Assembly: GCF_008065095.1 (NCBI RefSeq)
Contig: NZ_CP042911.1
Location: forward strand, 4,860,001 to 4,892,000
Length of the DNA stretch: 32,000 bases
Direction of reading: 5' to 3'
Origin: Gemmata obscuriglobus
GTDB lineage: Bacteria; Planctomycetota; Planctomycetia; Gemmatales; Gemmataceae
Under the pieces are notes generated by a model. That model saw nothing but the letters and a program-made list of their open reading frames with translations, had not been told where the DNA came from and ran no database searches. Below are positions 7,234 to 25,265 of the stretch, one piece after another. Each line of letters begins with the position of its first letter. The stretch's first letter is position 1. Both the position numbers and the translations under genes were made by a program.

Positions 7234-7269
7234 TGCCCGTTTGCCTCACGCCTTCTGCTTGTGGTTCGC

Positions 7270-8130
7270 TCACCGCCGCCCGCGCCCGAGCACGTTGCGG
7301 CCGATCAAAAAGTTGCGCAGGTCCGCGACGAACGGTTGGTCCGTGCGCACCAACAAGTGGTCGACCCCGGCGCGTTTGAGTTGCCGGGCGGTGCGCTCGG
7401 CATCCACCCACCGGCGCGAGCCGCGGGTGACGAACACGCGCCCGGTCTCGGCCTCACCAGCCCGCAAAAATCCTGTACCCGGGACGCCCTCTTCGGCGGG
7501 GTCCTGGAGCTGAATCACGATCACGTCGTGCCGCTGCGCCATGAGCTTCAGCGCGGGCACCGCCGTCGGGTCGTGCAGGTCGCTGAGCGCGACCACCAGG
7601 CACCGGTTCGGCAGGGTCGGCGCCAACTCGGCGACCCGCCGGCCCAGCGTCGTGTGCTCGTCGTACCGGTACCGCCGGAACTCGTGCAGCCACCGCAGCA
7701 CAGCGGCCCGCGACAGGCTCGGCTCGAGCCGCACGTCCCGCCCGCCGACGCCGAGCACCCCGACCGGGCTGACCCGGTCCAGACACGCGAACGCCAGCGC
7801 GCCGGCGATGTGGACCGCGACCGCGTACTTGCTCCGCTTCACCGAACTCACGGTCATGGACGCCGAGGTGTCGAGCAGCAGGTAGCACGGAAGCTGCTTG
7901 GGCGCCTCGTACTCCTTGACGAACACCTTCCCCATGCGGGCCGTGATGCGCCAGTCGATGGACCGCACCGGGTCGCCCGGCTGGTACTGGCGCGACTGCG
8001 CGTACTCGATCCCGGAGCCCAGGAAGGGCGACCGGTCGGTGCCGTAGTTGAGCGCGTCGGCCAGCTTCTTGACCGCGATCACGAACTGGCGCGCGGTCAG
8101 GTGGTCGGCGGTGTCGAGCTGCCCGTCCAT
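7270..8130 (-). CDS. DUF58-family protein (VWA-like MoxR partner)
   Basis: ATG at 8128-8130, 3 nt after the MoxR stop. Contains the characteristic QYQPGDPVRSIDWRITARMGKVFVKEYE block and LLLDTSASM. Confidence 0.9.
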   Translation of the reverse strand: MDGQLDTADHLTARQFVIAVKKLADALNYGTDRSPFLGSGIEYAQSRQYQPGDPVRSIDWRITARMGKVFVKEYEAPKQLPCYLLLDTSASMTVSSVKRSKYAVAVHIAGALAFACLDRVSPVGVLGVGGRDVRLEPSLSRAAVLRWLHEFRRYRYDEHTTLGRRVAELAPTLPNRCLVVALSDLHDPTAVPALKLMAQRHDVIVIQLQDPAEEGVPGTGFLRAGEAETGRVFVTRGSRRWVDAERTARQLKRAGVDHLLVRTDQPFVADLRNFLIGRNVLGRGRR

Positions 8131-8133
8131 GTG

Positions 8134-9180
<1,047 letters not shown>

Positions 9181-9398
9181 CCGCAGCTCCCGTGGGTTCT
9201 TGGATCCAGACAGACGTCGCTGCCCCGCGACGGTTTCAGACAAAAGCGATACGCGGCCCGCAATCACGGAGCGGCCGGTCGGTTCGGTTGCAAAAAACGC
9301 AAGAGAGAATAACTGTATACACGAAGATAAACGCGACGCCAAGAGCGAACTGGATTTCGTCCGCTTTACCTCCAAGTGATCTCAACCTGCTAATACTT

Positions 9399-9439: not shown

Positions 9440-10442
9440 ACGGGGGGATCGCAGGACAACCGGCTCGCGCCGACACAGTAGACATCAAAATCAACTCCGA
9501 CACAACACCCCGAATGACCTTTGCGTGATCTCGCCGTTGTCACTCGCAAAAACGGCACACGCGGAATCGTGTTGCCAGACGAGCGCGAGCGCATTTCTTG
9601 CCCATACTCGGAGCGGTCAAAGCCCGTACACCGGGTACTTTTCCGCCTGAACGTTCCTGAGGTGAACCTTCACGGAGCCGCGACAAGCAGAATCCGCACC
9701 ACACGACTGACCAGACATTGACTTCCACTCCCAGGAACATAGCCACATTCTTGAATCAAAATGCCGCAACCTCCATCCCGACAGCAATTTGCAGCATCCG
9801 AGGCGAACACATTGAGCTGAATCCGAGTTGTCCTGGCAACCGCAACCGGGCACTCGTCTGGCCGTTTTTCGGGGTAGCAAACAACTAGCGAACTGGTAGC
9901 GGTTTGCCATCGGACTGGCAGCGAATGTCCAGTTGGCACCCCATCGGGTTCCTCCGTACTCCCGAGTTCTGCCGAGACAGCCCAAATTCCGGAGTCTAAA
10001 ACGATATCCTCACTGTAAGATTTATACACTACGTCATCGCGACCCACACTGGCTCGGTGCATTTGGAACTACCACCGCCCCCACACTGAACAGATGGCAA
10101 GAGCGTGTTCGGCCGCGCCATCAAACAACCGCCTGCACATTCGCAATGTGATTTTGTTGACCGGAGGGACTCTTCCACACCTTGGCCGAGCACAAACTTC
10201 TTTGATGAATGGCCGCGACTCACGTTCACAAAGCAAGTCGCGCCATTATTGCACACCAAAGCTAATCAATTAAATTTACATTATTTACGGCATTTTGGAG
10301 AGGTGATACACCAGTCGTTCACGAAAAACGTGACCTTTCTTTTTCACCGACCATTCATGATGTGGCTTTGCATCGTCTCGCGGGCGCGGCCATTGCTCCA
10401 TATCGCTTGTTTCGCTCGTGTTTCTTATCCGTGAGGGCATGT

Positions 10443-10815
10443 ATGAAGGGCTTTCTCCGATCCCGGCGTGCCGGCTTTACGCTCATTGAACTGTTGGTGG
10501 TTATTGCAATCATCGCCATCCTGATCGGTCTGCTCCTGCCGGCCGTTCAGAAGGTCCGCGAAGCCGCATCGCGCGGCGAAGTGTCAGAACAACTTGAAGC
10601 AAGTTGGGCTGGCGATGCACAACTTCCACGATGTCTATAACGGGTTCCCGGTGGAAGGGTCGACGCAGGGGGTAAGCTGGCCGATCCGCATCCTGCCGTA
10701 CATCGAGCAGGGTAACGTTTACAACTTGGTGTTCCCCCTGTTCCAGACCGCCATCAACACGGAGAAGACGGGTGGTGACGTTCTTTCCCTTCCGCCGGAA
10801 GTCTCGATGGGCTAG
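10443..10815 (+). pseudogene. DUF1559 / prepilin-type N-terminal methylation-domain protein, frameshifted and 3'-truncated by an IS
   Basis: [44 protein letters not shown] is the canonical type-IV-pilin-like leader of planctomycete DUF1559 proteins. The family-typical continuation [19 protein letters not shown]...[17 protein letters not shown] is in the +1 frame (track ORF 10594-10815). One extra nucleotide near 10575 (gcgcGgcg) separates the two frames. Family-like sequence stops at about 10768, where the IS1-like inverted repeat begins. Confidence 0.85.
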
Positions 10816-12048
10816 GATGATAGTACGCCCAGCCGAGTGCGGAGGGGTGTATGAGCGAGCGTAATTGGTCGACCTTCGCGTGCCCGAATCCGGCGTGCTC
10901 CGTGTACGGCCAGGTGGGTCAATCGAACCTGCGCCCGCACGGGTGGTCGAGCAAGCCGCGGGGCATCCGGTGCCTCCGTTGCACGGCCTGCGGGAAGAAC
11001 TTTTCGGAGCGCAAAGGGACGCCCCTGTTCGGCCTCCACATGAGCGACGAGAAGGCCCTGGACATCGCCCACCACTTGGTCGAGGGCAACGGCATGCGGC
11101 CCACGGGGCGCCTGTGCGGGGGCACCCTGAACACGGTGCTCCGGTTCGCCCGCAAGGCCGGGGACCACGCCCAACGGTTCCACGACCAGATGGTCCGGCA
11201 CGTCCAGCCGCAGCAGGTCCAAGCCGATGAGGCGTGGTCCTATGTGGGGAAAAAAAGACAAGAACTGTGATCCGGAGAACGCGGCCGATCGCCAACGCGG
11301 CAGTTGGTGGGACCACGTCATCCTGGACACCAGCAGCCGACTCATCGTGACCCTGGTGGTGGGGCGCCGGAACCTCGGAACGCTGGAATCGGCGTGGACC
11401 GACTTCGACGCGCGAACCGACGGCGGGTTGCCGGACCTGGTCACCACGGATGAGTACCCGGCGTATTCCACGGCCCTGCTCCGGACCTATGGGGTGCCCA
11501 AGGCCGCACTCGAATTGAGCGTCCGGGAGAAGAAGGCGTGTGACTTCGCGTCCCGGCCGGCGGTGTACTTCCCCGAGGAGATCAACCACGCGACGGTGCG
11601 CAAGGAGCGACAGGGCGGGCGCGTGGTGTCGATCGAGAAGCGGATCGTGCGGGGCACCCCGGAGGCCGTGGCCACGGCGCTGACGCGCGGATCGACACCA
11701 CCCACGATCAACGTGAGCTACGTGGAGCGGTGCCACGGCACCCAGCGGCACTTCAACGCCCGCAAGGCGCGCAAGGTGTACACGTTCTCCAAGGCGCTCG
11801 CGGTCACCTAGTTGTGCGTAGTGCGGTACAACTTCGGGTGGGCCGTCCGCACGCTCCGCCAGAAGACCCACGCGAACCCGCCTCGATACCGGCCCCGCAC
11901 CCCCGCGATGGTCGCCGGGATCACGGATCATCGATGGACGTTGGAAGAGATACTGACGCGACCATTGTTCCCGCCCAAGACCGCCGCAACAACGCAAACG
12001 CTCGCGAAAGCGGCTCTTGCAACGGAAGGTGAATGACGTCACCACCCG
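10769..12048 (+). mobile_element. IS1-family-like insertion sequence (about 1.28 kb), decayed
   Basis: Terminal inverted repeats: cgggtggtgacgt at 10769-10781 is the exact reverse complement of 12036-12048. The next 17 nt inward match at about 10 of 17 positions. The element encloses a zinc-finger plus DDE transposase. No target-site duplication is visible. Confidence 0.75.
10851..12036 (+). pseudogene. IS1-family transposase (InsA-like zinc finger plus InsB-like DDE) split by a +1 frame change and an in-frame TAG
   Basis: ORF1 (10851-11270) has CPNPAC...CLRCTACGKNF and ends ...QADEAWSYVGKKRQEL*. ORF2 (11227-11811) is in the +1 frame and continues ...GKKDKNCDPEN...VTTDEYPAY...VERCHGTQRHFNARKARKVYTFSK. 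The overlap contains an A7 run at 11250-11256. TAG at 11809-11811 is followed in the same frame by YNFGWAVRTL...TPAMVAGITDHRWTLEEIL (track ORF 11812-12036). Confidence 0.8.
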
Positions 12049-12303
12049 AACGCCCGACACGGCACGCGAAGCAGTAGGCGTTTCAGAAAACCCGCCGACT
12101 CAACGCACAGAACCACTCCGAGAAGTAAAATACGCACATCCGGTACGAACGCCTGCCACGAATTGGTGCCCGCGCAAGGCGTGGACGTATCGTCGTTTAC
12201 TGTGCACCGCGTTCACGTCTCTGGTGTCGCCCGTGGCCTGAACACGGGGCACCAAAGCGATAGGACGTGGCGCGAGTCGCCGTTTGTCTTCAAGGATCGC
12301 CGC

Positions 12304-15156
12304 GTGCGCCTGAGCCTCGTCGTTCTGATTTCGGCCGTTCTGTCTACCGGACCGGTGTATGGGGCGGACCCGGTGTGCGCCCTGCTGGACCCGGACAAGC
12401 ACCCGCGCGTGACCCTGTTGGAGGCCCGATTGCTCACGCAACCGGGCGCCACCTGGGTCGAGCGCACAGCGATCGATAAGGTGCTTAAGGAGCAGAAGCT
12501 TCAGGCCCTTCTTGCGCCACAAGGCGTCGGCGACCGGGTCCGGTTCGGCAAACTACTCAAAGCCGATTTGCTGGTCACCGTTCGACCGGTCACGGGGACC
12601 GGCGCAACCGCCCTCGAAGTGATCGTCAGCGAGACCGTGGGCGGGTTGCGGCTCGCGGCCAGCGCCGTGCCCGTAACCGGTGACGCCGATGCCGATGTTG
12701 CGGCGCTGCTCGCGGCGGTGCGGGCGGGCGTCGTGCGGCACGGCGAGAAGGTCACGCAGGTGGTGGCCGTTCCGCCGTTCGTCAGCAACGACCTGGAACA
12801 CACTCACGACCACATGCGCGGCGCACTGGCCAAACTGGCCGAGGCCGAAGCGCTCGGGCGGAAGGGCGTCGTGGTGGTGGAACTCGCCGAGGCCGAAGCG
12901 CTGGCGAAGGAGCTCGCCCTTGCGGCCCCGGGCACCAAACTCGAGCGCCCGGCCCCGGTCTACCTCTTGGGCGAGTACCGGCACCAGGGCCAGGGCAACG
13001 AACGGACGATCGCACTGAAGCTCCGCGCCGAGCGCGCCGGTAAACCGGTCGGCAAGTCGGAAACGTTCACGCTGAAGCGCGACGCGGTGGCGGCGGCCGT
13101 GCGCAAGTGGTCGGCGGGTGCGATCGACGCGGGGACCGACGGCCCCGGCCGACAGCCCGCCGCTCCCGCAGCCGAAGCCGCGCAGCTTGCGGCTCGCGCC
13201 AAAACGGCCCTCCGGCTCGGCTACTGGGAGGAGGCCGTCGCCCTAGCGGAAGCGGCGCTCCTCGTCGATCCGACGCAGATCGACCTCCACGTGTTTGTGA
13301 TGATCGCTCTCGGCGATCCGCTCCGCAAGATCCACTGGCACGAGCTGAGTTCCAGGACGGACGGCCTGAAGGCCTTTCGCCGGTTCCTGCTCCTGTACCG
13401 CCGCGGGCTCGAGCATTTGGAGGCGTTTATCGACGCCGGCGGCGACCCGTCTCGCCATACGATGCGGGGAACGGGAGTCGATCAGTTGTTCCTGTCGTAC
13501 TTCCGCGGTCAGGCCTACTACTTAAGAACCGAACTCGTCACGATGCACCTGCACGCCCCGGAGGGGCCGGCGCTACTTGAAGAGGCCCGGCAGTTCGAGC
13601 GCGCCTTGTTCGCCCGGCTTCTGAAAGCCCCTCAGGTCGCTAACGCGTCCCAGGACGTTCACCTGCAGTTCGTTGCCCCCCTCCTTCACAACCTGTCGGC
13701 CGCCGAGCAGTACGCCGTTGTCGAGCGCCTGCTCGCGGGCCTGCCCGACGCCCCCGCCTCGGCGGAAAAGGCGCGCTGGTACCTGATACTGGGGTTTGAT
13801 GCGTTCGACCAGCCCGAGCAGGGCCGGCCGGCGGTGTTCAGAACGGGGCCGGCTTACGAGGCGTTCAAATCTCGCGTCCTGAACGAGAAATTCCGGTTCG
13901 CGGCCGTGGCGAAAGACGAGCTGGCGCGCGCCGAAAAGCGAGAGGCGGATTCGAAGAAGTACCGGCCCCCTGCTCCAGCCACGACGAGCGCGAGAGACGT
14001 TCGCCTGACGGCTCTTAAACTGGAACTCCCGGTTCTCCCGAACCGGCCGGCGCGACCGCTCCTCGGGCTGGTGGCGGCCGGCCCGAATCTCGATGTGGCG
14101 TGGGACGGAATGGCCGTTTACGTCACGAAGGAGAAGGGGCAGTTCGAGCGACTGGCCCCATCCGCAACGTGGCCGAGCTTACCCGAGAGCGTTATTTTCG
14201 ACGGAAAGTACGTGTGGGCCTCGGGCATGGACGTGAACCCCAAGATCGGGGTCACCGGCTGGTTCTTGACGGCCACAGACCCAGTTGCGGGTAAGACCTG
14301 GAACCTGACGAAAACGGACGGGTTGCCCGCCCCACCCGCGCTGACCGAGGTTCAGTGGCGCAGTGAGCGCCCGCTGGCCATCGCGGCGCTGGGACCGGGG
14401 CGCGTGTGCGTTGCCGGCGCGGCAGGCCGCGCCTGGGTGGCGACGTTAACATTTAACCCCGCGACCGGCGGGACGGCTAAGGTGCTTCACGAAGCGCGAG
14501 AGGCTCCGGACCGGCTCGAGAAGGACCAGTGGAAAAAAACGAACGTGAAGTTCATGCCGGGGTCCGTCCGCGTCCTCACGGGCGCGTCCGCGGACGGCCA
14601 ACCGGTCACCCGCATCGTGGTGGGGCGGAGCATCGGCGACACCCCCGAGATCAGTGCGCGACCTCTGATCATTGATCCCGATCGAGCGACCACGGAAGTG
14701 GTACCCGACTTGCGAGTCCCGTCATTCGACCCGCGAGCCGGGAACCGCGGCAAAGGTCCTATGCTCAACGGAAAGCTGTTCTTTCAAGAACCGACCCTGT
14801 ACGGCGAGCAGCGGCTGATGCGGCTCACCGTTCCCGGTCCGGTGAGCGAAGTGGTCGCCACCGGTTTGCCGCGCAATGTTTGGTTCATTCACCCGGACGG
14901 CCAGCGGTTCCATGTGATCGAGCATGTGTTCATCCCCCCGCCTGCCGGCGCACAGGCCCCCGCACGCTGGACCTCCAACTGGTGGGTGGTGGAACCGGGA
15001 GCAACCCGCGCCCGGCTCGCCGCTTCGGGGCTGCCGCACATTAGCTGGGTCGGGACCAGTGCGCACTACGGGCTCGTTGCCCTGGGTGAGTCCGACGGCC
15101 CTGACCGCACAACGAACTTCTACAAGGTTGAGGTTGCCGCCCCGGCCGGTAAGTAA
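12304..15156 (+). CDS. Secreted 950-aa protein: two degenerate LpoB/CsgG/FlgO-like modules, a helical middle and a beta-rich C-terminal region; function unknown
   Basis: The track ORF 12163-15156 has no ATG before the signal peptide. GTG at 12304 gives (M)RLSLVVLISAVLSTGPVYG/ADP. The segment WVERTAIDKVLKEQKLQ...GKLLKADLLVTV resembles LVDRTDLKKTLEEQRLS...GQLIGARLIVTG of the kinase ectodomain. Strong GC3 codon bias throughout. Confidence 0.85.
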   Translation: MRLSLVVLISAVLSTGPVYGADPVCALLDPDKHPRVTLLEARLLTQPGATWVERTAIDKVLKEQKLQALLAPQGVGDRVRFGKLLKADLLVTVRPVTGTGATALEVIVSETVGGLRLAASAVPVTGDADADVAALLAAVRAGVVRHGEKVTQVVAVPPFVSNDLEHTHDHMRGALAKLAEAEALGRKGVVVVELAEAEALAKELALAAPGTKLERPAPVYLLGEYRHQGQGNERTIALKLRAERAGKPVGKSETFTLKRDAVAAAVRKWSAGAIDAGTDGPGRQPAAPAAEAAQLAARAKTALRLGYWEEAVALAEAALLVDPTQIDLHVFVMIALGDPLRKIHWHELSSRTDGLKAFRRFLLLYRRGLEHLEAFIDAGGDPSRHTMRGTGVDQLFLSYFRGQAYYLRTELVTMHLHAPEGPALLEEARQFERALFARLLKAPQVANASQDVHLQFVAPLLHNLSAAEQYAVVERLLAGLPDAPASAEKARWYLILGFDAFDQPEQGRPAVFRTGPAYEAFKSRVLNEKFRFAAVAKDELARAEKREADSKKYRPPAPATTSARDVRLTALKLELPVLPNRPARPLLGLVAAGPNLDVAWDGMAVYVTKEKGQFERLAPSATWPSLPESVIFDGKYVWASGMDVNPKIGVTGWFLTATDPVAGKTWNLTKTDGLPAPPALTEVQWRSERPLAIAALGPGRVCVAGAAGRAWVATLTFNPATGGTAKVLHEAREAPDRLEKDQWKKTNVKFMPGSVRVLTGASADGQPVTRIVVGRSIGDTPEISARPLIIDPDRATTEVVPDLRVPSFDPRAGNRGKGPMLNGKLFFQEPTLYGEQRLMRLTVPGPVSEVVATGLPRNVWFIHPDGQRFHVIEHVFIPPPAGAQAPARWTSNWWVVEPGATRARLAASGLPHISWVGTSAHYGLVALGESDGPDRTTNFYKVEVAAPAGK

Positions 15157-15244
15157 GCCGCTACCCTGGCACCTTTGCCAGGCCCCAGAGCCGGCCAACG
15201 CACTTGTAAGTTGAACCGGGAACGGGAAACCACCGAACTCAGTT

Positions 15245-15874
15245 ATGAACCCATCTCACGCGACGGGCGCGGACCCCGGGTCCACTCAGGCGGGCCTGAT
15301 CGCCGGCGTTCAGCAAGGCGACCCGAGCGCCTGGCGCCAGCTCACGGCCGTCTACGGCCCGCTCGTTTACGGATGGGCACGACGGGCCGGGCTCCACAAC
15401 GAGGACGCCGCCGACATCACGCAAGAGGTGTTCCGGTCGGTCGCCGCCCGCGCGTCGCGCTTCCAACACGGCCGCCCGGGCGACACCTTTCGCGGGTGGC
15501 TCTGGACCGTCACCCACAACAAGCTCCGCGACTTCTGGCGGCAGCGGGCCGTTCGCCCGCAAGCGGCCGGCGGGACCGACGCGCAGGACCGGTTACTGCT
15601 GATCGCCGAGAGCGGCTCCGACAGCCGGCCCGGGCTCGCGGCCGAATCGGAAGGGTTGCTCCGGCGGGCAATGGAACTGGTGCGGGCCGAGTTCGAGCCG
15701 CGGAGCTGGGACGCCTTCTGGCGCGCTGCCGTCGAGGGTCACCCCGGCGCGGACATCGCACGCGAGCTGGGGATGACCGTCAACGCCGTTTACATCGCCC
15801 GGTCCCGCATCCTGAACCGCCTCCGCGAGTTACTCGGCGAAGACTCCGCCGGAATCGGTGGGGCACCGCAGTGA
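15245..15874 (+). CDS. ECF-type sigma-70 family factor
   Basis: Region 2-like DAADITQEVFRSV...TFRGWLWTVTHNKLRDFWR and a region 4 helix-turn-helix GADIARELGMTVNAVYIARSRILNRLRE. About 209 aa, the usual ECF size. Confidence 0.9.
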   Translation: MNPSHATGADPGSTQAGLIAGVQQGDPSAWRQLTAVYGPLVYGWARRAGLHNEDAADITQEVFRSVAARASRFQHGRPGDTFRGWLWTVTHNKLRDFWRQRAVRPQAAGGTDAQDRLLLIAESGSDSRPGLAAESEGLLRRAMELVRAEFEPRSWDAFWRAAVEGHPGADIARELGMTVNAVYIARSRILNRLRELLGEDSAGIGGAPQ

Positions 15875-15980
15875 CGGACACTTCCGGCCGGAGTTATTAC
15901 GCTGCAAGAACGCGTGAAAGGTGAGGCCGTTATCTTGGTTGAGCGGTCACGGGAGCCGTACCTGTACCCCGGCAGCGATC

Positions 15981-18248
15981 ATGCGCCACGTTGCGATCAA
16001 CACCTGTTGCCCGGACCGCGAGATGTGGTCCAGCTTTTATGCGGGCATGGTGCCCGCCGGCGCGATCGACGGGCTCGTTGAACACCTGGACCACTGCCCG
16101 ACGTGTCAGGGCGTACTCCACGCCCTGGCCGGCGAGACGGTGGGGCAGGCCGACGCCCTGTTCGCGAACCTCCAAGGCACACCCGGCCAGGCGGACGCTT
16201 ACGAGGCCGAGGCGGAGTGCCGCCGGGCGGTGGAACGCGCCCAGTTGCTGGTTCCAGGGGAAGTGAGCGAGCCCGCCACCATAACGCTCCCGAGTCAACT
16301 AGGGGAATACCGGCTGCTCCGGCTGATCGGCCGCGGCGGCATGGGGAACGTGTACCGCGCCGTACATGTCCGGCTCGGTCGCGAGGTCGCACTCAAGGTC
16401 ATTCCACCGGAGCGGGTGCGGGACACGGCGCTGGCCCGGTTCCAGCGTGAGATGATCGCCCACGGGAAGCTCGACCACCCGAACGTCGTCCGAGCAACGG
16501 ACGCCGGAGAGGCGAACGGGACCGCGTTCCTGGTCATGGACCTGGTGGACGGGATCGACCTCGACGGGTTAGTCCGCGGCTGCGGCCCGCTACCGGTTGC
16601 GGACGCGTGCGCACTCGCGCGGCAGGCCGCGGCCGGGCTGCACCACTTGAGCGGTCACGGCCTCGTCCACCGCGACGTGAAGCCGTTGAACCTCATGCTC
16701 GACCGCGGGGGAACGGTCAAGGTGCTCGACCTGGGGCTCGCGGCCCGCACCGACCCGGCCCCCGTGGTAGCCGAGGCCAGTACGGCGGACACGGCGCTCA
16801 CCAGCGACGGACAAATTCTCGGCACGTTCGATTATTTGCCCCCAGAACAGGCGGCCCCGACCGGGACGGTCGACGCCCGGGCTGATGTGTACGGCCTGGG
16901 CTGCTCGTTGTACTTCCTGCTCACCGGCGCCGCCCCGTATGAAGGAACGGCGCACGCCACCCCGCGGAGCAAGGTTCTCGCCCACACCGTGGGGCCGGTG
17001 CCACAGGTCCGGAGCAGCCGCCCGGACGTGCCGGCGCCCCTCGCACGGGTTCTGTCGCGGATGCTGGCGAAAAACCCTGAACACCGGTTCCCGAGCGCCG
17101 ACGCTGCCGCCGAGGCGCTCGCGCCGTTCTGCGCGGGCGCCGATCCGGCGAGCCTCTTGCGCCGCGCGGGGTTCGAGCCGCTTCCGTCCGCCCCCCTTCC
17201 CTTACCGACCGCGGTCCGAGCCCCACGCGCCCGGCGGGCGTGGATCGCGGCCGGCGCGTTCGTCGCGCTTCTGCTCGCCGCCGGCACGCGTCAATGGCTA
17301 CCGTCCGCAACGGTCGCTCCCGCCGAGCCCCCGGCGCAACAAACCGAGCCGGCGAAACCGCCAGACCCGAAACGCGCCGCCGTTCGGGCCGTTCCGGTCG
17401 CGCTCTTGGGGTTCGACGAGCGCGGCGGGGCGGCCAGCGGGCTCGGCGGCGCCGTGAGCGACCTGCTGTTCGCAAAGCTGGTCGCGAAGCCCGGGTTTCA
17501 CCTCGTCGACCGCACGGACCTGAAGAAAACGCTTGAAGAGCAGCGGCTCAGCCTCTCGGGCGCGGTCAGCCCCACCGAGGCCGTCCGGGTCGGGCAGTTA
17601 ATCGGTGCCCGGCTGATCGTCACCGGCTCTGTGGTCCGGGCGGACGGGCGTCTTCACCTCGTTGCCAAGATCATCGGCACCGAGACCACACAGGTCACCG
17701 GGGCCGCTGTTGCGGGCGCGATCACCGAGGACCTGACGGCGCTCGTCGAGCGGTTGGCCGGCGCGGTCGAAGATGCGGTGAACCGGCACGGCGATCGGTT
17801 GCTCCCCGCGTCGGTTCCGGTCGCGGATCGGATCGCTGCGCTCAACAAACGGCTCGGGACCGCCCCCCGCCCGGGCGTCGGGGTGAGGACGACCGAGCGC
17901 GAGTTCGGGCTACCGGCCGCCGGCGCAGCGGCGCGAACGGAGATCACGAAATACGCAAAAGAAACGGGGTTCGAAGTAACGAGCCCGGACCGGGCGGCCG
18001 TGGTCATCACCGGCAATGCGTTCAGTGAGGTGATCGGCCGCGCCGAAGGCTTGGTGAGCGTGCGCGCGCGGGTGGAGCTGAAAGCAACGGACCGGAAAAC
18101 CGGCAAGATCCTGGCGGAGGACCGGCAAACTGCGATCGTGGTCGATTTGGCCGATTCGGTCGCCGCACACGCGGCGGTTCAAAGTGCCACCGCCGAACTC
18201 GTCGAGCGATTGCTACCCCGACTCGTCACCCCCGACCCGAAGCCGTAA
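15981..18248 (+). CDS. Membrane Ser/Thr protein kinase with an N-terminal anti-sigma-like zinc motif and a two-module extracytoplasmic domain
   Basis: ATG at 15981 (alternative GTG at 15921). HLDHCPTC (H-x3-C-x2-C) at 16083-16106. Hanks kinase motifs: GRGGMGNVY, VALKVI, HRDVKPLNLML, DLGLA, FDYLPPEQ. One TM span WIAAGAFVALLLAAG at about 17241-17290. The ectodomain from about 17391 begins VPVALLGFDERG. Confidence 0.9.
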   Translation: MRHVAINTCCPDREMWSSFYAGMVPAGAIDGLVEHLDHCPTCQGVLHALAGETVGQADALFANLQGTPGQADAYEAEAECRRAVERAQLLVPGEVSEPATITLPSQLGEYRLLRLIGRGGMGNVYRAVHVRLGREVALKVIPPERVRDTALARFQREMIAHGKLDHPNVVRATDAGEANGTAFLVMDLVDGIDLDGLVRGCGPLPVADACALARQAAAGLHHLSGHGLVHRDVKPLNLMLDRGGTVKVLDLGLAARTDPAPVVAEASTADTALTSDGQILGTFDYLPPEQAAPTGTVDARADVYGLGCSLYFLLTGAAPYEGTAHATPRSKVLAHTVGPVPQVRSSRPDVPAPLARVLSRMLAKNPEHRFPSADAAAEALAPFCAGADPASLLRRAGFEPLPSAPLPLPTAVRAPRARRAWIAAGAFVALLLAAGTRQWLPSATVAPAEPPAQQTEPAKPPDPKRAAVRAVPVALLGFDERGGAASGLGGAVSDLLFAKLVAKPGFHLVDRTDLKKTLEEQRLSLSGAVSPTEAVRVGQLIGARLIVTGSVVRADGRLHLVAKIIGTETTQVTGAAVAGAITEDLTALVERLAGAVEDAVNRHGDRLLPASVPVADRIAALNKRLGTAPRPGVGVRTTEREFGLPAAGAAARTEITKYAKETGFEVTSPDRAAVVITGNAFSEVIGRAEGLVSVRARVELKATDRKTGKILAEDRQTAIVVDLADSVAAHAAVQSATAELVERLLPRLVTPDPKP

Positions 18249-18334
18249 CGCCGAACCCGGACCGCGATTCTTATGCGCCCTCCTGAAGCACCCGTCCGGG
18301 GCGGGGAGGAACAACCCGAGTGGGAGACCGAACA

Positions 18335-19351
18335 ATGACGAGCGTGCGCATCGTGCTCGCGGTGTCTGCGGTGCTGGTGTGCGGCCTCCTCCCGGCCGCG
18401 GCCTTCGGTCACGGACCGGACAAGGTCAGCGACAAAGCCAAGGACAAGCAAACCAAAGGGGGTAAGGACAAACCCGTCCTTCCGGTGGCCCTGCTGGGCT
18501 TCGACGAGCGCGGCGCCGGCGCGAAGGGGCTCGGCCCAAAGGTCACGGACCTGTTGTTTCTGAAACTCGCGGCACGGACCGAGTTCTTTCTGGTGGACCG
18601 CGCGGACCTGAAGAAGGCGCTCGACGAGCAGGTGTTGAGCCTGACCGGTGCGGTCAAGGCCGACACGGCGGTGACGGTCGGACAACTCACCGGCGCCAAG
18701 TTGCTCATAACGGGGTCCGTGGTTCAGATCGACAAACGGGTCCACCTGATCGCCAAGGTCATCAGTTCCGAGACCGGCCGGGTGGTCGGTGCCTCCGCCG
18801 AGGGGACGCTCTCGGACGATCTTGAAGGGCTCGTAGCTCAACTTGCCAACGTGATCACCGGAGTGACAATCAAGCAACGCGACCGGCTTTTGCCCGCGCC
18901 GGTCCCGGTCGCGGACCGTACCGCCGCACTCAACCGCAAGCTCGGCAAAGCCGCCCGCCCCACGATCGCAGTGCGCGTGACCGAACGGCACGTCGGCCAA
19001 CCGACCGCGGACCCGGCCGCACAGACGGAAATCACCAAACGCGCCAGGGCTCTGGCGTTCGAGGTGATCGACTTGGACGCGGACGGCGAAAGTCGTGCGG
19101 ACGTGTTCGTCACGGGCGAAGGGCTCAGCGAGGCGGCCGGCCGAGTCGGGCCGCTGGTCAGTGTGCGGGCGCGCGTCGAATTAAAAGCGATCGATCGCCG
19201 AACCGGCAAAGTGCTCGCGGTGGACCGTCACACATCGGTCGTGGTCGATTCGTCCGAACAGATCGCGGGCAAGACCGCACTCCAAAGCGCGGCCGCACTC
19301 CTGGCAGAGCGTGTGCTGCCACAACTCGTTACGGTGGAAAAGAAAAAGTAA
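18335..19351 (+). CDS. Secreted paralogue of the kinase ectodomain
   Basis: ATG at 18335 is preceded by GGGAGA. Signal peptide MTSVRIVLAVSAVLVCGLLPAAAFG. The rest is colinear with kinase residues encoded from about 17391 to 18248, with shared blocks LPVALLGFDERG, LVDR-DLKK-L-EQ-LSL-GAV, DRLLPA-VPVADR-AALN and LVSVRARVELKA-DR-TGK-LA. Confidence 0.85.
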   Translation: MTSVRIVLAVSAVLVCGLLPAAAFGHGPDKVSDKAKDKQTKGGKDKPVLPVALLGFDERGAGAKGLGPKVTDLLFLKLAARTEFFLVDRADLKKALDEQVLSLTGAVKADTAVTVGQLTGAKLLITGSVVQIDKRVHLIAKVISSETGRVVGASAEGTLSDDLEGLVAQLANVITGVTIKQRDRLLPAPVPVADRTAALNRKLGKAARPTIAVRVTERHVGQPTADPAAQTEITKRARALAFEVIDLDADGESRADVFVTGEGLSEAAGRVGPLVSVRARVELKAIDRRTGKVLAVDRHTSVVVDSSEQIAGKTALQSAAALLAERVLPQLVTVEKKK

Positions 19352-19416: not shown

Positions 19417-22083
19417 TTAATCCGCACCGGCAACGGGTAGTGTGAACGCGAACGCGGCTCCGCCGCCGTCAGCCGGGCGGGCACTGAGGTGCCCGCCGTG
19501 TGCCTCGATGATGCTCCGGCTGATCGCCAACCCCAACCCGGTGCCTTGCTCCTTGGTTGTGTAAAACGGCTCGAACACCCGCTCCAGTTCGTCCGGGCGC
19601 AACCCCGTGCCGGTGTCCGCCACCTCCACCCGTACACCGTCCGGGGCGCGCCGGGTCGTAATCGCGACCATGCGCGCCCCGGGCGGCGTGCCGGTCAGCG
19701 CTTCGGTCGCGTTCCGCAGGAGGTTCAACAGCACCTGCTCGATCTGAATCCGGTCGGCCTGAACCGGCGGCAGCCCCGCCCCCAAGTCGAGGGTCACCGC
19801 AACATGATGGTGCCGCAGCTCCGGACCGGCCAGCGCGAGGGCGTCGCGCACGGGGTCGTTCAGCTCGGTCGTGGACCGGTGCGGTGCCCGCTTGCGCATG
19901 AAGTCCCGCAGCCGCCGGATGATGCGCGCGGCGCGCTCCGCCTGGGCCACCGTCAGGTCGAGTACGTCGGCCACTTCGGCCGTCGTGCCCGTGCCCCCGC
20001 GGAGCCGCAGCGCGCCGCCCCGACAGTAGTTGATCACCGCCGTGAGCGGCTGGTTCAGCTCGTGCGCCAGCACCGCCGCCATCTCACCGACCGCCACGCA
20101 CCGGGCCACGTGCGCCAGTTCCGCCTGGTGCTGGTGCAGTTGCTCCTCGGCCCGCCATTGCGCGGTGGTGTCCGTGAGCGACGCCACCACAGGGAACGGT
20201 GCGCCGGTCCCCGGAAGCGCGTGAGCGTTCACAACCAGACGAACCGGCTCACCGTCCCGACCGCCGTCCAGGACCAGAACCACCCCCACGCACACGCCCC
20301 CGCCCAGGCGCACGACCTCCCACGGCAGCAGGTCCGCAGCGACCGGCAGCCCGTCCGCGCCCCGAACGCGCCCGAGCGTGTTACCGGGGCGCGTGCCGAG
20401 CAACCGATCGGTCGTGCCGCCGAAGATCCGCGCCGCGCTCTCGTTGGCCTTCAGCACCCGCCCGCCCGCGTCCAGCAGTAACACCCCTTCGTGCAGCGCC
20501 GACAGGATCAGCCGGTTGCGCTCGGCGCTCTCGCGCAGCGCCCGCTCTTGCTGCTTGCGAGCAGTGATGAACTGCATTGCGGACATGACCAGGTCCGGGG
20601 GCACGAACGAGTACGACACGAGCACGTCACCGTCCGGCCCCGCCGGCCCGACCCAGTCCACCCCGGCCCACCGGGACTCGCACTCGAACGCGCTCCGCTC
20701 CCGCAGGCACCGCGCCACGCTTGCCCGGTGGTCCGGTTGGTTCCGGTGCAGTTCCGAGAGCCGGCGCCCGAGCACCCGCGTGATTCCCCCGGCGGTGAGC
20801 CGCCGGGCGGCCTCGTTGCAGTCGGCCAGCACGAAGTCCGCCCCGTCACCTCTCCAGCACGCGGTCGCCAGTGGCGAGTTCTGGAACAGGTCACGGAAGC
20901 GGGCCTCGCTCGCGCGCAACGCGTCCGCGGCCCGAACGCGGTCGGTTACGTCCCGGCCCACCGACTGGAACCCGGTCACCCGCCCGGCGTCATCAAAGAA
21001 TGCCCGGTTCGTCCACTCATGCCACCGCAGTTCGCCCCCGGCGCCGATTACCCGGTTTTCGACCGAGGCGACGGGACGCGTGGGCGTGAGCGCCGCGAGG
21101 TGCCGGGCGACGTACTCCCGCTCCGGTTCCGGGAGCAGTTCCCAGAACCGGCGCCCGAGTAGCTGTTCAGGGGTTCGGCCGAAGTACCGACAGTACGGGC
21201 CGTTAACGTACGTGAGGGTGCCATCCGGGAGGGTCCGACAGAGCAACTCTGTTTGGGCCTCGACGACGCCGCGGAACCGCTGTTCGCTCTCCGCCAGCGC
21301 CCGCTCGGCGGCGCGACGGGCGGTCACGTCGTGGTGAACCACGACCGCGCCGCCCGATTCGTTCGGGAGCGGCTTGACAACCGCCCGGTACCACCGCTCC
21401 GCTCCGCCGCTCGGGCACGGGTACTCGGCGGCGAAGCGGTCCGCCGTTCCGCTCAGCACCGCGGCCAACCCGCCGCACATCTCGGCCGCCCCTGCGGAGT
21501 TCGGCCCGGCCACCTGGCGGCACGCGTCCAGGTAGTTCGCCCCGACCGCACAGCGCTGAGCGGGGCACCCGGTCGCGCGGGCGCACTCCTCCCACCCCGC
21601 GCTCGTGGCAACAATCACCCCGGAGCGATCGACGACCGCGACCAGTTCGTCGAGCGCACCAACCACCGCCCGGCCCAGGGCCGTCTCTGTGCCCCGCGCG
21701 GGCGTAACGTGCTCCGCTCGAACCACTGCCAGCACCGCCCCGCCGTGGAACGGCCGGACCGCGACCTCAACGGGGAACTCCGTGCCGTCCTTGCGGCGCC
21801 CCCGGATGCCGGGGCGGCGGCACACGGCCTGAACGTTCTGATCGGTCGCACGCGCGAGCCGATGTCGCTCGTGGTCGCGCCGCGCGCGGTCGGGCACGAG
21901 GGCGTCGAGGTGAACGTCGCACAGTTCCCCGGGGCCGTACCCGAACAGCACCTCTGCGGGGCGGTTGGCGGAGCCGATCACGCCGTCAGGGCCAACGACC
22001 AGAACACCGTCGCTTAGCGCATCGAGCACGAGTTCCGCCGACGGCCGACCGGGGTTCGAGGGAAGGTGTGAGGTGTCTGACAT
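19417..22083 (-). CDS. Soluble multi-PAS sensor histidine kinase
   Basis: ATG at 22081-22083. H-box HELNQPLTAV, N-box LLNLLRNATEAL, G1 DTGTGL, G2 GTGLGLAISRSI. The roughly 600 aa upstream consist of repeated PAS-like segments (about five by eye). No hydrophobic span is seen. Confidence 0.9.
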   Translation of the reverse strand: MSDTSHLPSNPGRPSAELVLDALSDGVLVVGPDGVIGSANRPAEVLFGYGPGELCDVHLDALVPDRARRDHERHRLARATDQNVQAVCRRPGIRGRRKDGTEFPVEVAVRPFHGGAVLAVVRAEHVTPARGTETALGRAVVGALDELVAVVDRSGVIVATSAGWEECARATGCPAQRCAVGANYLDACRQVAGPNSAGAAEMCGGLAAVLSGTADRFAAEYPCPSGGAERWYRAVVKPLPNESGGAVVVHHDVTARRAAERALAESEQRFRGVVEAQTELLCRTLPDGTLTYVNGPYCRYFGRTPEQLLGRRFWELLPEPEREYVARHLAALTPTRPVASVENRVIGAGGELRWHEWTNRAFFDDAGRVTGFQSVGRDVTDRVRAADALRASEARFRDLFQNSPLATACWRGDGADFVLADCNEAARRLTAGGITRVLGRRLSELHRNQPDHRASVARCLRERSAFECESRWAGVDWVGPAGPDGDVLVSYSFVPPDLVMSAMQFITARKQQERALRESAERNRLILSALHEGVLLLDAGGRVLKANESAARIFGGTTDRLLGTRPGNTLGRVRGADGLPVAADLLPWEVVRLGGGVCVGVVLVLDGGRDGEPVRLVVNAHALPGTGAPFPVVASLTDTTAQWRAEEQLHQHQAELAHVARCVAVGEMAAVLAHELNQPLTAVINYCRGGALRLRGGTGTTAEVADVLDLTVAQAERAARIIRRLRDFMRKRAPHRSTTELNDPVRDALALAGPELRHHHVAVTLDLGAGLPPVQADRIQIEQVLLNLLRNATEALTGTPPGARMVAITTRRAPDGVRVEVADTGTGLRPDELERVFEPFYTTKEQGTGLGLAISRSIIEAHGGHLSARPADGGGAAFAFTLPVAGAD

Positions 22084-22807
22084 AGCGCGGGGAGGACCAC
22101 AAAGCGCGGCGCGTCACGTGATCGCGACCGAAATCGCAGATAGCACTGTCGAATGTCAGGGGGCGACTTGAATAGGAAAACGTGGGGCGGTGCCGAACCG
22201 CGACAATATGGGTATTGCCCAAGCTCGGCTCTAAACTCAATGGTATGACTTTCAGTCGGCCGGCGATAAGAGAAAGCGCGCTCGCCGCTGAAAGAATCCC
22301 ACGACGAGCGTTTCGACCGTTCCTTCGGGACGAATACCAACAACTCAACCTGGAAGTGACAGCCGACCTGCGGGGCGCTCTCGTTCTTGTTCGTCGCCGG
22401 TCCCCACTTGATCATCGCCTCGGTCCTTTTCCGACCCCGACCAGATCGTAAAGATCATTGTTATCGACAACATGCAACGGGCCTTCCGACACCTCTCGCT
22501 CTCATACTTCCTTTCAAGGCGTCGTCGGTTTGCAGCAGGGACGGCACCGGGTTACCGACGGCCGCTTGCAGTTTCACCGCACCCAGGGTGGGTGGGTGGG
22601 CCTTCCGTCACTTCGACCCGAGCGGACGACCACCCGGGCGCTGCAAGGTAGCGGTTATGCGCTCCAAACATGGCAGCGCCCGACGGGACAAGTCGCCGAA
22701 CCGGCCGGTTCAGTGTTTCTCCCGACGCGGGAGTAGTGTAAAGTGTAACTACCCACCCGCGCGCAACGCCGGTCGAAGCACGCACACTCGTGTCAGGTGC
22801 TCCCCGA

Positions 22808-23425
22808 ATGATGTCGGCCCCCCCGCCCGCCACAATCTTTGTGGTCGACGACGACCCCAACGTTCGAAACTCGCTGTCCTGGCTGTTCGCGTCCGTAAAC
22901 CTTCCGGTGCAGTCGTTCAACAGCGGCGAAGAGTTCTTGCGAGAGGTGGGTACGGAACAACCGGGGTGCGCGATTCTGGACCTGCGAATGCCGGGGTTGA
23001 GCGGGCTCGCGGTGCTCGAACAACTGGCGACCCGCGAGATCGGCCCGGCGGTCGTACTCACCACCGGCTTCGGGAGCGTGCCCACCACGGCCCGGGCCAT
23101 GCGGTCCGGGGCGGTTCACGTTCTTGAGAAGCCATACGACGACCAGGAGATGCTCGACACGGTTCACGAAGCGCTGCGGTTGGACGCCGAGAAGCGGACC
23201 CTGCGCGCACAGCGGATCGCGATTCAGGCCCGGTTGACCGCGCTCACCGCGCGCGAGCGCGAGGTGCTCGATCTCGTCGTCTCCGGGAAGGCGAACAAGG
23301 TCATCGCACGGGAACTGGCGGTGAGCGAGAAGAGCGTCGAGTTCCACCGCGGCAACATGATGCGCAAGCTCAAGGTCGACAACGTCGCCGAACTCGTCCG
23401 GCTCGTGCTCACTAGCGGCGCGTGA
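22808..23425 (+). CDS. FixJ/NarL-type response regulator (receiver plus LuxR-type HTH)
   Basis: Start at ATG 22808 (or 22811). Receiver domain IFVVDDDPNVR...DLRMPGLSG. HTH LTAREREVLDLVVSGKANKVIARELAVSEKSVEFHRGNMMRKL. Confidence 0.9.
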   Translation: MMSAPPPATIFVVDDDPNVRNSLSWLFASVNLPVQSFNSGEEFLREVGTEQPGCAILDLRMPGLSGLAVLEQLATREIGPAVVLTTGFGSVPTTARAMRSGAVHVLEKPYDDQEMLDTVHEALRLDAEKRTLRAQRIAIQARLTALTAREREVLDLVVSGKANKVIARELAVSEKSVEFHRGNMMRKLKVDNVAELVRLVLTSGA

Positions 23426-23504: not shown

Positions 23505-25031
23505 GGGTGTGATTTTTTGCCCCCGGCGTCCCCTCCCTTGCGCCCTCGCCGCCCCGCGGGTCACACGCCTTGTGGCTCGCGATTGTGTTCGCTTGCTTTT
23601 CGTGCGGCCTCGCGCAGGGTATCCGTCCATGGTCGCTGCGGGTGCTTGTGGGCGCACCGCCGGATGGTCTGGAACAAGTTGTGCACGAGCGCGTGGAGCA
23701 CCACCACGGCTCGCACCGCGACCAACCCGCGGACACGGAACTGGTACAACCCGCGGTTACGCATGCCGGCGTTCACCCACTCGGCGGCCGGCGCCCGCTC
23801 CTTGTAAATGGCCTGACCGTCCGGGGTCCCCATGCGCACCCGCAGGGCCTTCATCCCGGGTCCGTCCCTCCGCTTCGGGGCGCATGGGTCCCGGCCCGCC
23901 AACCGGTCCGCTCGGGCCCCTTTCGGGGGCATGAACACGGTGACCCCGCTCCGCGCCGCCCGCTCCACATCGGCCCCGCTCGCGAACCCGCCGTCCACCA
24001 GCGCCTCACCCGGCTTCCGCCCGTAGGTCGCTTCGACCCGGTCCAGCATCGGCCCCAGCAGCCCACCATCGGTTCCTTGATTGGTCACGTCTACCGCCAC
24101 GATGATCTTCTCGGCGGTGGTGGTCATCGCCGGCACGTTGTACGCCGGCCGGTACCCGCCATCGGGCATCTTCATGCGACGGCACGCGGGGTCGGTGGAC
24201 GACGCCCGGGGCGCGGACCGTACCGGGTCGGCGGCCGCTTTCGCCGCCGCCGGTGGGTTCCGTCGGAGCCGCGCCGCCCGCGCGCGCCAACTCGGCCGCG
24301 TCCTGTTGGGCCACCTTCAGCCGCTCGAGCTTCTCCCGCGCGTGCCGCTCCCGGGCGGCCCGGGAGCGGCACGCGGCGGTCCCCTTGGGCTGGTCCGGTT
24401 GGTCCTGGAGCAACCGCAGCGGCTCGGCCACCTCGCGCGGACATTGCTCCAACGATTCGAGCCGGTGGAACGAGCCGGCGCCGGCGTGGGCCCGCACCCG
24501 CATCCCGTCCTGGGCCACCCGCTTCAGGTGCACCAACTCGGCGTGCATCCGGATCGCCACGTGCTCGTGGAACAGGGCCTCCAATTCGGTTCCCGCGTGG
24601 GTGCGGAAGTTGGACAGCAGGTGGTAGTTGACCGTGACACCCCCGCACAACCAACGGAACCCCACATCCCGCACGCACAACCGGGCCAACCGGCGGGCCG
24701 ACCCGACCCCCTCGACCGTGGCGAACATCCACAGGGCCACCAGCAGCCGTGGGTCCGTCGCATTCCGCCCGGGGCGCCCTTCCACCGCGCGGATCGTGGC
24801 TACGAACCGATCCAGGTTCAGCGTCGTCACGTCGCTCCAGATCACCCGCACCGGGTCGTCCGCCGAAACCAACTTGTCAATCGTTAGCGACGCCACCGTC
24901 GCCGCCCGGTCCGGGGTTCGCAGTCGCGGCAACGCGTCCATCACAAGGTCCCAACAGCCCGCACCCCTGGAATCAACACTGCGACAATTATAGAGCCAAT
25001 AGATTAACCAGACGCCGGGAAAATCACAGCC
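23505..25031 (-). mobile_element. IS1182-family-like insertion sequence (about 1.5 kb)
   Basis: Imperfect terminal inverted repeats: gggtgtgattttttgcccccggcgtc (23505-23530) versus the reverse complement of 25011-25031, ggctgtgattttcccggcgtc. These match at 20 of 21 positions with a 5-nt indel. They enclose the transposase. Exact termini are uncertain. Confidence 0.65.
23561..24941 (-). pseudogene. IS1182-family DDE transposase, frameshifted
   Basis: N-terminal part starts at ATG 24939-24941: MDALPRLRTPDR...DPRLLVALWMFATVEGVGSARRLARLC...NYHLLSNFR. The C-terminal catalytic part KMPDGGYRPAYNV...IIVAVDVTNQGTDGG...ALVDGGFAS...AEWVNAGMRNRG...LVHNL is in the +1 frame (track ORF 23561-24175). The frame change lies between about 24180 and 24290. 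Confidence 0.8.
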
Positions 25032-25265
25032 TTTCCGCGAGTATTCCGATCCCGGCGTTGAGTGCCACGCACTTCCGGACCCCGGAGCCACCTCCGCACG
25101 GAGTGTCCGGACCGCAATCAAAAATGGTGGCAGAACGGGCCTCATACATGAGCCCACCTGCGGTGTCGCTGTCTTGACGAGCCGCGACCGCGAGGCTCAT
25201 GATCCCCCAGATCTTGCGTAGCGGGTGAGAATCGTTAGTCTTTGCTCGGCAAGAACTCGTGTCGA

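Follow-up and report, generated by a model that had tools for sequence, protein, structure and literature searches.

The groups of extracytoplasmic function (ECF) sigma factors encoded beside Ser/Thr kinases in planctomycetes are said to have been first described by Jogler et al. in 2012. In the kinase-linked group ECF43, the acidic DAED motif of region 2.2 is missing from the sigma factors and the partner kinase adds an activating phospho-threonine there; the pairs described are EcfP/PknT of Vibrio parahaemolyticus and EcfK/PknS of Xanthomonas citri (PMC8999054, PMC13147305). ECF59 and the old ECF60 resemble ECF43; in further kinase-linked groups the motif is retained and the mechanism may differ (PMC8999054, PMC8103513, PMC13147305), and the control of kinase-linked sigma factors of this second kind has yet to be explained (PMC8999054). 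The planctomycete kinase-linked groups ECF59, ECF61, ECF62 and ECF217 of Casas-Pastor et al. (2021) have no separate anti-sigma gene (PMC7826278, PMC8999054), and current reviews describe the kinase-linked ECF groups that retain the acidic motif as being without anti-sigma factors. In Mycobacterium tuberculosis, the kinase PknB phosphorylates the zinc anti-sigma factor RshA, which frees SigH (PMC8999054). Gemmataceae have about 100 Ser/Thr kinases, and a planctomycete genome carries about 40 ECF sigma factors on average (PMC11032199, PMC7826278). Here we analyse a 32,000-nucleotide stretch of Gemmata obscuriglobus DNA (RefSeq assembly GCF_008065095.1, contig NZ_CP042911.1, positions 4,860,001 to 4,892,000 of the forward strand), referred to as the window, whose own numbering is used for positions within it. 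It contains a four-gene locus in which an ECF sigma gene is followed by the gene of a transmembrane kinase, K, that joins an N-terminal domain of anti-sigma type to an outer domain related to D, the secreted protein encoded next to it; a second secreted protein, A, is encoded upstream.

An anti-sigma-type domain on a receptor kinase

The locus (12304-19351) consists of four genes, all on the forward strand, in the order A, sigma, K and D. Intergenic gaps measure 88 nt between A and sigma, 106 nt between sigma and K and 86 nt between K and D, and the GC content at third codon positions (GC3) is 0.79-0.86 in each gene. The positions of the open reading frames (ORFs), their strand and this coding-type GC3 bear out the co-directional block described in an initial annotation of the window, and profile searches upheld the four domain assignments made there, namely an ECF sigma factor, a zinc motif of anti-sigma type, a Hanks kinase and an LpoB/CsgG-type module.

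K (15981-18248, forward strand) is a single-pass Hanks kinase of 755 residues. Its cytoplasmic N-terminus, residues 1 to about 95 (15981-16265, forward strand), carries a zinc-type, anti-sigma-like domain, identified by motif and by profiles. The putative zinc ligands are C10, H35, C39 and C42, the last three forming the motif H35-x3-C39-x2-C42 and C10 lying 25 residues upstream. A spacing of C/H-x24-H-x3-C-x2-C is that of ChrR and RsrA. Across an alignment of 48 family members, C10, P11, G22, H35, C39, C42, D58 and L64 are invariant; C80 is also conserved, and the second half of the domain (D58, L64, E77 and C80) lies outside the anti-sigma matches. A profile built from the family matched solved zinc anti-sigma domains, with E values of 2.5e-5 for DdvA, 8e-4 for ChrR, 7e-3 for RslA and 0.011 for RsiW. 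Furthermore, 43 of the 48 members matched Pfam zf-HC2, the best at 5.6e-10. These two sets of matches sustain the proposal that the N-terminal motif is of anti-sigma type. The predicted structure of the domain has helices at residues 13-20, 26-38, 40-55, 59-66 and 78-90, with a predicted local distance difference test score (pLDDT) above 90 at residues 11-50. Its top four Foldseek neighbours were RsiW (two chains), RslA and RseA, all at weak E values of 1.5-4; the structures matched were those solved with each protein bound to its ECF sigma factor or sigma domain. On the strength of the alignments and profiles, we conclude that the N-terminal domain of K is homologous to class I zinc anti-sigma domains, to which a conserved second half is added.

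Kinases with this domain are common. An exhaustive HMMER search with K residues 1-110 returned at least 130 representative clusters, and in almost every cluster the domain sits at the N-terminus or close to it; a word-index protein search with the same residues had given no match. Many of the full-length proteins are kinases, and their C-terminal parts vary widely, including WD40, leucine-rich repeat (LRR) and FGE-sulfatase domains. The architecture had been described as unusual; with so many clusters, mostly kinases with varied outer domains, it is ordinary for the phylum.

The catalytic part of K also appears functional. The Hanks-type Ser/Thr kinase domain spans residues 110-373 (16308-17099, forward strand; Pkinase E value of 1e-41), and its GRGGMG, VALK, HRDVKPLN and DLG motifs are intact. 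The glycine loop, VALK, HRDxKPxN and DLG are kept in all full-length members of a set of 22 K orthologues, which are therefore predicted to be active kinases. Residues 420-436 (17238-17288, forward strand) form the transmembrane segment. They are the sole strongly hydrophobic stretch of the protein (Kyte-Doolittle value of 1.95 over 17 residues), with RAPRARR on the cytoplasmic side.

We considered whether the zinc domain might be a redox switch. It would then act like that of RsrA or RshA, with cytoplasmic oxidative or thiol stress freeing the sigma factor, and the kinase and ectodomain would provide a separate input or serve other substrates. The C-x24-H-x3-C-x2-C arrangement is of the zinc anti-sigma type, some members of which, such as RsrA and ChrR, are redox-sensitive, and C80 adds a further conserved cysteine to the domain. 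Most zinc anti-sigma domains, however, are not redox sensors, and the locus has no redox-related feature. In addition, the domain is strictly fused to receptor kinases whose outer parts differ greatly, which favours an extracytoplasmic input. We therefore give the redox switch only a slim chance.

The sigma factor and its pairing with the kinase

The gene upstream of K (15245-15874, forward strand) encodes a protein of 209 residues that profile searches place among the ECF (group 4) sigma factors. Sigma70_r2 matched at an E value of 4e-12, and the TIGR02937 sigma70-ECF model scored 60.4 bits against a cut-off of 42.9; Sigma70_r4_2 (E value of 2e-5) reached 24.5 bits, slightly under its cut-off of 25.7. 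The protein scored far below the cut-offs of the planctomycete sigma subfamilies in NCBIfam. It is homologous to the sigma factors encoded upstream of other zinc-domain kinases.

To define the pairing, we compared loci fetched from databases (L001-L088), among which L007 is the syntenic locus of Gemmata algarum. We call a kinase K-type if it has a Pkinase domain together with a D-like ectodomain; nine such loci, the window included, were available, with kinase identities of 43-100%. An ECF sigma gene encoding 198-218 residues lies directly upstream of the kinase in all nine, and we conclude from this gene order that a functional link joins the two. A homologous 204-residue sigma gene likewise stands directly upstream of three of four zinc-domain kinases whose ectodomains are unrelated, so that a homologous ECF sigma gene occupies this position in 12 of the 13 zinc-domain kinases examined. 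Co-conservation of the four-gene block, which had been predicted, is thus strict for the sigma factor and the kinase; D and A-like genes are frequent companions and not universal ones. Pairs of an ECF sigma factor and a Ser/Thr kinase are a class already known, as the initial annotation stated in agreement with the literature, and are not categorically new. In one metagenomic protein (P0184; JGI metagenome, 914 residues), an ECF sigma factor, the zinc domain and a kinase occur in one ORF. This is a single case and may be an assembly error; if the fusion is real, it would support an interaction between sigma factor and kinase.

The sigma factor had been assigned to ECF43, and this label fails. 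One mark of that group, an adjacent Ser/Thr kinase gene, is present, as K starts 106 nt downstream of the sigma gene. In ECF43, DAED is replaced by uncharged residues with a phospho-acceptor threonine (PMC8999054), whereas region 2.2 of the window sigma factor reads EDAAD. Here D54 and D57, which align with D-V-P-D of Escherichia coli RpoE, are invariant among seven orthologues. Judged by these residues, the protein is likely to be competent to bind core RNA polymerase.

The main rival to our interpretation is nevertheless an ECF43-like activation, in which the sigma factor is inactive until the kinase phosphorylates it for RNA polymerase binding, and the zinc domain serves only for docking or dimerization. 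[quoted passage not shown] The kinase motifs of K are intact, and the sigma factor offers possible phospho-acceptors: Thr14 (in PGST), which lies in an N-terminal extension of about 25 residues and is invariant among the seven orthologues aligned, and the conserved Ser/Thr of the conserved linker GG[TS]DAQ. A further locus also fits this rival. At L088 (3161-7795), the sigma factor beside a WD40-type zinc-domain kinase reads VAAG where the window has DAAD; its acidic motif is lost and the kinase retains the zinc domain. Both types of sigma factor therefore occur beside zinc-domain kinases, and the L088 combination implies that the zinc domain may be a docking site and not an inhibitor. Two points speak against the rival. 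The window sigma factor and its six orthologues keep D54 and D57 as RpoE does, and so would not have the defect that phosphorylation repairs in ECF43 (PMC8999054), and the N-terminal domain of K is homologous to domains of true inhibitory anti-sigma factors. On balance, we regard ECF43-like activation as unlikely, although it is the alternative to be taken most seriously.

A kinase ectodomain related to a conserved secreted protein

The outer part of K (17388-18248, forward strand) comprises two tandem domains of LpoB/PelC/CsgG fold and is paralogous to D. The D gene (18335-19351, forward strand) encodes a secreted protein of 338 residues that also has two such domains, preceded by a signal peptide with no lipobox. 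Its start is most likely the ATG at 18335, the ORF itself opening at a GTG at 18320. D is 100% identical to a G. obscuriglobus database protein named CsgG, and K likewise has a fully identical database counterpart from this species. The K ectodomain and D share 54% identity over 322 residues (E value of 3e-94), and both match Pfam CsgG, K at an E value of 2.6e-9, above the cut-off, and D at 2e-12. The match in D spans only positions 35-105 of the 210 in the profile, which implies that the channel-forming part is absent. We rejected the possibility that D is a CsgG orthologue or curli channel, given this partial match and the lack of a conserved lipobox cysteine. The idea that D is a lipoprotein was also discarded, as there is no conserved cysteine in the signal peptide across a 40-member alignment of the family (mean column identity of 57%).

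An AlphaFold2 model of D (pLDDT of 86.5; predicted template modelling (TM) score, pTM, of 0.78) showed two tandem alpha/beta domains. Its best neighbours in the PDB were the C-terminal domain of LpoB (TM score of 0.72, root mean square deviation of 2.3 Å, 115 columns, E value of 1.4e-5), CsgG, PelC and LptE, and 68 PDB matches had E values of 0.001 or lower. The model thus indicates that D has an LpoB/PelC/LptE-like periplasmic alpha/beta fold at the superfamily level, the level at which the LpoB/CsgG-type fold proposed for the outer module is supported. The initial annotation had placed one module in A, K and D alike. This stands for K and D and for A and K, for which residues 38-150 of A are 37% identical to residues 495-607 of K (E value of 2e-9); compared directly, A and D gave no significant match (E value of 0.5).

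D belongs to a widespread family. D-like proteins of about 320 residues and about 50% identity occur in Planctomycetota, Verrucomicrobiota, Lentisphaerae and Kiritimatiellia, and among the first 600 pattern matches we confirmed at least 346 D relatives in genome contigs. Directly upstream of D, 68 of the 71 genome loci with enough upstream sequence have a gene that we call X; the three loci without it are all kinase-linked. X is a secreted protein of 335-360 residues (an example of the X-D pair is L003, 8978-10951) and has no relative in Pfam, NCBIfam or PDB sequences. Of 76 loci of the Planctomycetes-Verrucomicrobia-Chlamydiae (PVC) bacteria, 20 have A-like genes, with the same N-terminal module as A, no further than 1 kb downstream of D, and L002 has five A-family paralogues around a core of sigma, kinase, X and D. 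In the window, and in G. algarum with its identical order of A, sigma, K and D, X is missing from the locus; it is present at loci of other lineages. On this distribution, the conserved PVC unit is X-D(-A), and the sigma-kinase pair was added in some lineages; the K-type pair is joined to X-D(-A) only in a subset of Gemmata-like lineages. D had been taken for a free copy of the kinase ectodomain, which reverses the history: with D found across PVC bacteria, the gene comparison indicates that D is the older gene and the K ectodomain a derived copy.

Other loci join D or X-D to regulators in different ways. The kinase at L012 (7201-15786) is of another kind, lacking the zinc domain and differing at its N-terminus, yet it too is fused to a D-like ectodomain. 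Its gene has an ECF-like sigma gene upstream and is followed by X and an A-like gene, and the locus has no free D. Here D seems to have been recruited independently as a sensor. At L071 (5874-10864), from an unclassified bacterial metagenome-assembled genome (MAG), genes for a classical ECF sigma factor, a membrane zinc anti-sigma factor and a beta-propeller protein stand directly upstream of X-D. Judging by the gene orders in K-type loci, L071 and L012, X-D operons have been put under ECF control repeatedly and by different routes. In a Pirellulales MAG (L064, 8834-10894), X and D form one ORF of 687 residues, which is either a natural fusion or an assembly error.

Matching of the kinase ectodomain to the neighbouring D protein

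Considering that the K ectodomain appears to derive from D, we compared the two within each locus. Over the last 290 residues, ectodomain and D are 57% identical in the window (65% at the DNA level), 80% at L002 (80% DNA) and 89% at L004 (89% DNA; 7716-8604 versus 14090-14976). At L006, the DNA identity reaches 98.8% over 883 nt (11435-12317 versus 13562-14443), in a tract that runs from just past the D signal peptide to the stop codon; this locus is a low-coverage long-read contig in which the kinase is frameshifted. In both L004 and L006, the free D gene lies a few kilobases downstream of the kinase ectodomain DNA. Kinase ectodomains of different loci share 48-59% amino acid identity, and in a neighbour-joining tree they were scattered among the free D proteins and were not monophyletic. 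Since the cytoplasmic halves of the kinases are orthologous and synteny is conserved while the ectodomain tracks the local D, the simplest reading of these sequences is repeated homogenization of ectodomain and D, by gene conversion or by selection for matching. Repeated homogenization would mean that the sensor must stay D-like. The constraint could be co-assembly with D or competition for the partners of D; co-assembly is suggested by the related folds PelC and CsgG, which form rings.

A different explanation is that no mimicry is involved. D and the ectodomain would be duplicates that bind the same small ligand or envelope polymer independently, or D would be a decoy, as the initial annotation suggested, and the similarity would stem from recent independent duplications. 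Folds of the LpoB/PelC/LptE type do bind varied envelope partners, and the L012 kinase gained its D-like domain independently, so such fusions recur. Against this, the ectodomains follow the local D at 80-99% DNA identity even though the kinases have orthologous cytoplasmic parts and conserved synteny with the sigma gene. Moreover, the tract spans the whole mature D coding region to the stop, which fits homogenization better than repeated replacement of a whole gene. Independent duplication without mimicry therefore seems to us improbable.

A conserved element, gene A and the surrounding genes

The spacer between sigma and K contains a 19-nt element, TGAAAGGTGAGGCCGTTAT (15915-15933, forward strand), that is conserved in K-type loci. 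Its 19-20-nt pattern, TGAAAGGT-N5/6-CGTTAT, has one match in the window against 0.01 expected, and is present in all seven of the other K-type loci fetched (L001, L002, L004, L005, L006, L007 and L044). Of 79 other loci, one (L071) has a match; it lies inside the anti-sigma ORF, out of register, and we discounted it as probably due to chance. The element is absent from the loci of zinc-domain kinases with other ectodomains. In the window, L002 and L006, it precedes the kinase ATG by exactly 47 nt. In L004 and L044, it instead precedes the sigma ATG, by 6-7 nt, which would be compatible with a leaderless sigma mRNA and CGTTAT as its −10-like sequence. A GAAC-like −35 sequence was found 16-17 nt upstream of CGTTAT in only four of seven loci. 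Considered as RNA, the element had no Rfam match and no stable fold (z-score of 0.42). Its position and conservation make it, in our view, a candidate promoter or operator of the kinase and D genes, one specific to K-type loci.

Gene A (12304-15156, forward strand; GC3 of 0.80) is an ORF for a secreted protein of 950 residues with a signal-like hydrophobic N-terminus. The LpoB/CsgG-like module occupies residues 34-150 approximately (12403-12753); against Pfam CsgG, A reached an E value of only 0.27. The middle part is helical and weakly tetratricopeptide repeat (TPR)-like, with weak TPR and BTAD matches only, and an unassigned C-terminal domain covers approximately residues 560-950; NCBIfam and PDB gave no match to any part of A. 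The C-terminal two thirds of the protein had no match in Pfam, NCBIfam or PDB sequences. Nine nucleotides past the A stop codon, a perfect 7-bp hairpin (15165-15182, forward strand; CCTGGCA-CCTT-TGCCAGG) with a 4-nt loop and no T run is kept in part in G. algarum. The TGGCAC at this place was tried as a sigma-54 promoter and rejected, because the GG-GC spacing is wrong and the stretch is the perfect hairpin.

Upstream of A lies an insertion sequence (IS) of 1.28 kb (10769-12048) with imperfect terminal inverted repeats of 33 nt. It carries an ORF for an InsA-like zinc-finger/helix-turn-helix protein (10851-11270) and a second ORF (11227-11811). The IS interrupts a DUF1559/N_methyl prepilin-like gene (10362-10815), its right end is 256 nt upstream of A, and it is absent from the syntenic G. 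algarum locus. Further out, the window has a MoxR AAA/DUF58/VWA operon on the reverse strand (5432-9375), a multi-PAS histidine kinase gene convergent with D (19417-22083, reverse strand), a LuxR-type response regulator gene (22790-23425, forward strand) and two transposase genes (24006-26684). The MoxR operon, the histidine kinase and the response regulator are syntenic in G. algarum, and no flanking gene recurs at more distant loci.

Proposed mechanism

We propose that the locus encodes an envelope-surveillance module with three parts: a sensor that mimics D, a zinc domain on which the sigma factor docks, and kinase-driven release or activation of the sigma factor. We give this model as a whole an even chance of being right. 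D and A, with X in other lineages, would form a periplasmic or envelope system conserved in PVC bacteria. K would display a copy of D as its sensor, and this copy would bind the partners of D or co-assemble with D, so that the ectodomain would report the state or the stoichiometry of the X-D-A envelope system. At the membrane, the zinc-type domain may dock the co-encoded sigma factor. A signal at the ectodomain would switch the kinase on, and phosphorylation of the sigma factor, the docking region or both would free or activate the sigma factor; on the sigma factor, Thr14 and the GG[TS]DAQ linker are the candidate sites. Freed sigma would then transcribe its targets, possibly from the 19-nt element before the kinase and D genes. 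The logic would be that of PknB acting on RshA, built into one polypeptide. The sequences themselves show the domain identities, the strict synteny of sigma and kinase genes, the homology of the N-terminal domain with zinc anti-sigma domains, the intact catalytic motifs, the paralogy and concerted evolution of ectodomain and D, and the conservation of X-D(-A) across PVC bacteria. That the sigma factor is bound and phosphorylated, what kind of signal is sensed and which genes are controlled are inferred.

Several observations weigh against the model. The isolated zinc domain of the window matched zf-HC2 at an E value of 0.0088 and 16.6 bits, under the cut-off of 22.2, and its structural matches have Foldseek E values above 1. 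The L088 pair combines a sigma factor lacking the acidic residues with a kinase that keeps the zinc domain. The 19-nt element is not a standard ECF −35/−10 pair, as its two conserved parts lie 7 nt apart. Finally, the DNA of D and that of the ectodomain are no more than 65% identical in the window, where X is also missing; mimicry may therefore be relaxed, and the constraint weaker, in Gemmata.

A more demanding claim combines both halves of the argument and generalizes them: planctomycete kinases of this type would be 'kinase-coupled anti-sigma factors' acting in cis, and the sensor a gene-converted mimic of D that monitors X-D-A assembly. We put this joint claim forward tentatively, as we consider it somewhat more likely to fail than to hold. 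If it is true, kinase-coupled anti-sigma factors would be the missing control mechanism for those kinase-linked ECF groups that keep the acidic motif. A conserved anti-sigma-type domain on partner kinases would offer a specific mechanism, open to testing in many systems in parallel. The locus also points to a PVC-wide X-D(-A) envelope operon that has repeatedly been placed under ECF control, and the match that the receptor's sensor maintains with the free protein encoded beside it suggests that sensing works by mimicry or co-assembly. Within the searchable literature, three features appear not to have been described: the anti-sigma-type domain as a general feature of partner kinases, a D-mimicking sensor kept matched to the neighbouring D, and the PVC-wide X-D-A operon behind the sensor.

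Comparison with known systems

The ECF43 pairs resemble this locus in that a transmembrane Hanks kinase is encoded beside an ECF sigma factor. In PknS, too, helices precede the kinase domain; no zinc motif is reported for PknS. They differ in the sigma factor: those of ECF43 lack DAED (PMC8999054), and that of the window keeps D54 and D57. The initial annotation considered the mechanism of the kinase-linked class poorly defined. For ECF43 this no longer holds, as the mechanism has been solved with EcfP/PknT and EcfK/PknS (PMC8999054, PMC13147305); it still applies to those planctomycete kinase-linked groups in which the motif is kept. These planctomycete groups share with the window an ECF sigma gene beside a Ser/Thr kinase gene. 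Their descriptions make no mention of an anti-sigma-type kinase N-terminus or a D-like ectodomain, and, within the searchable literature, we found no mention of zf-HC2 together with planctomycete partner kinases.

Among proteins of the LpoB/PelC/CsgG/LptE type, the alpha/beta fold is the same as in D and the K ectodomain. Those proteins are lipoprotein folds, and D differs in having two tandem copies and a signal peptide without a lipobox.

The class I zinc anti-sigma factors (RsrA, ChrR, RslA, RsiW and DdvA) have H-x3-C-x2-C in common with K, as well as a further ligand some 25 residues before it. They also resemble the family of the K domain in profile comparisons, possibly share its helical fold, to judge from the structure prediction, and are likewise encoded directly downstream of the cognate ECF sigma factor. 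The difference is that here the domain is fused to a kinase, with the sensory part beyond the kinase and the membrane. The PknB-RshA/SigH and RseA/SigE systems of M. tuberculosis provide the likeness in logic, since in both a Ser/Thr kinase acts on an ECF sigma factor through a zinc anti-sigma factor (PMC8999054). In M. tuberculosis, the kinase and the anti-sigma factor are separate proteins and the kinase has many substrates, whereas K would unite the two in one polypeptide dedicated to one sigma factor.

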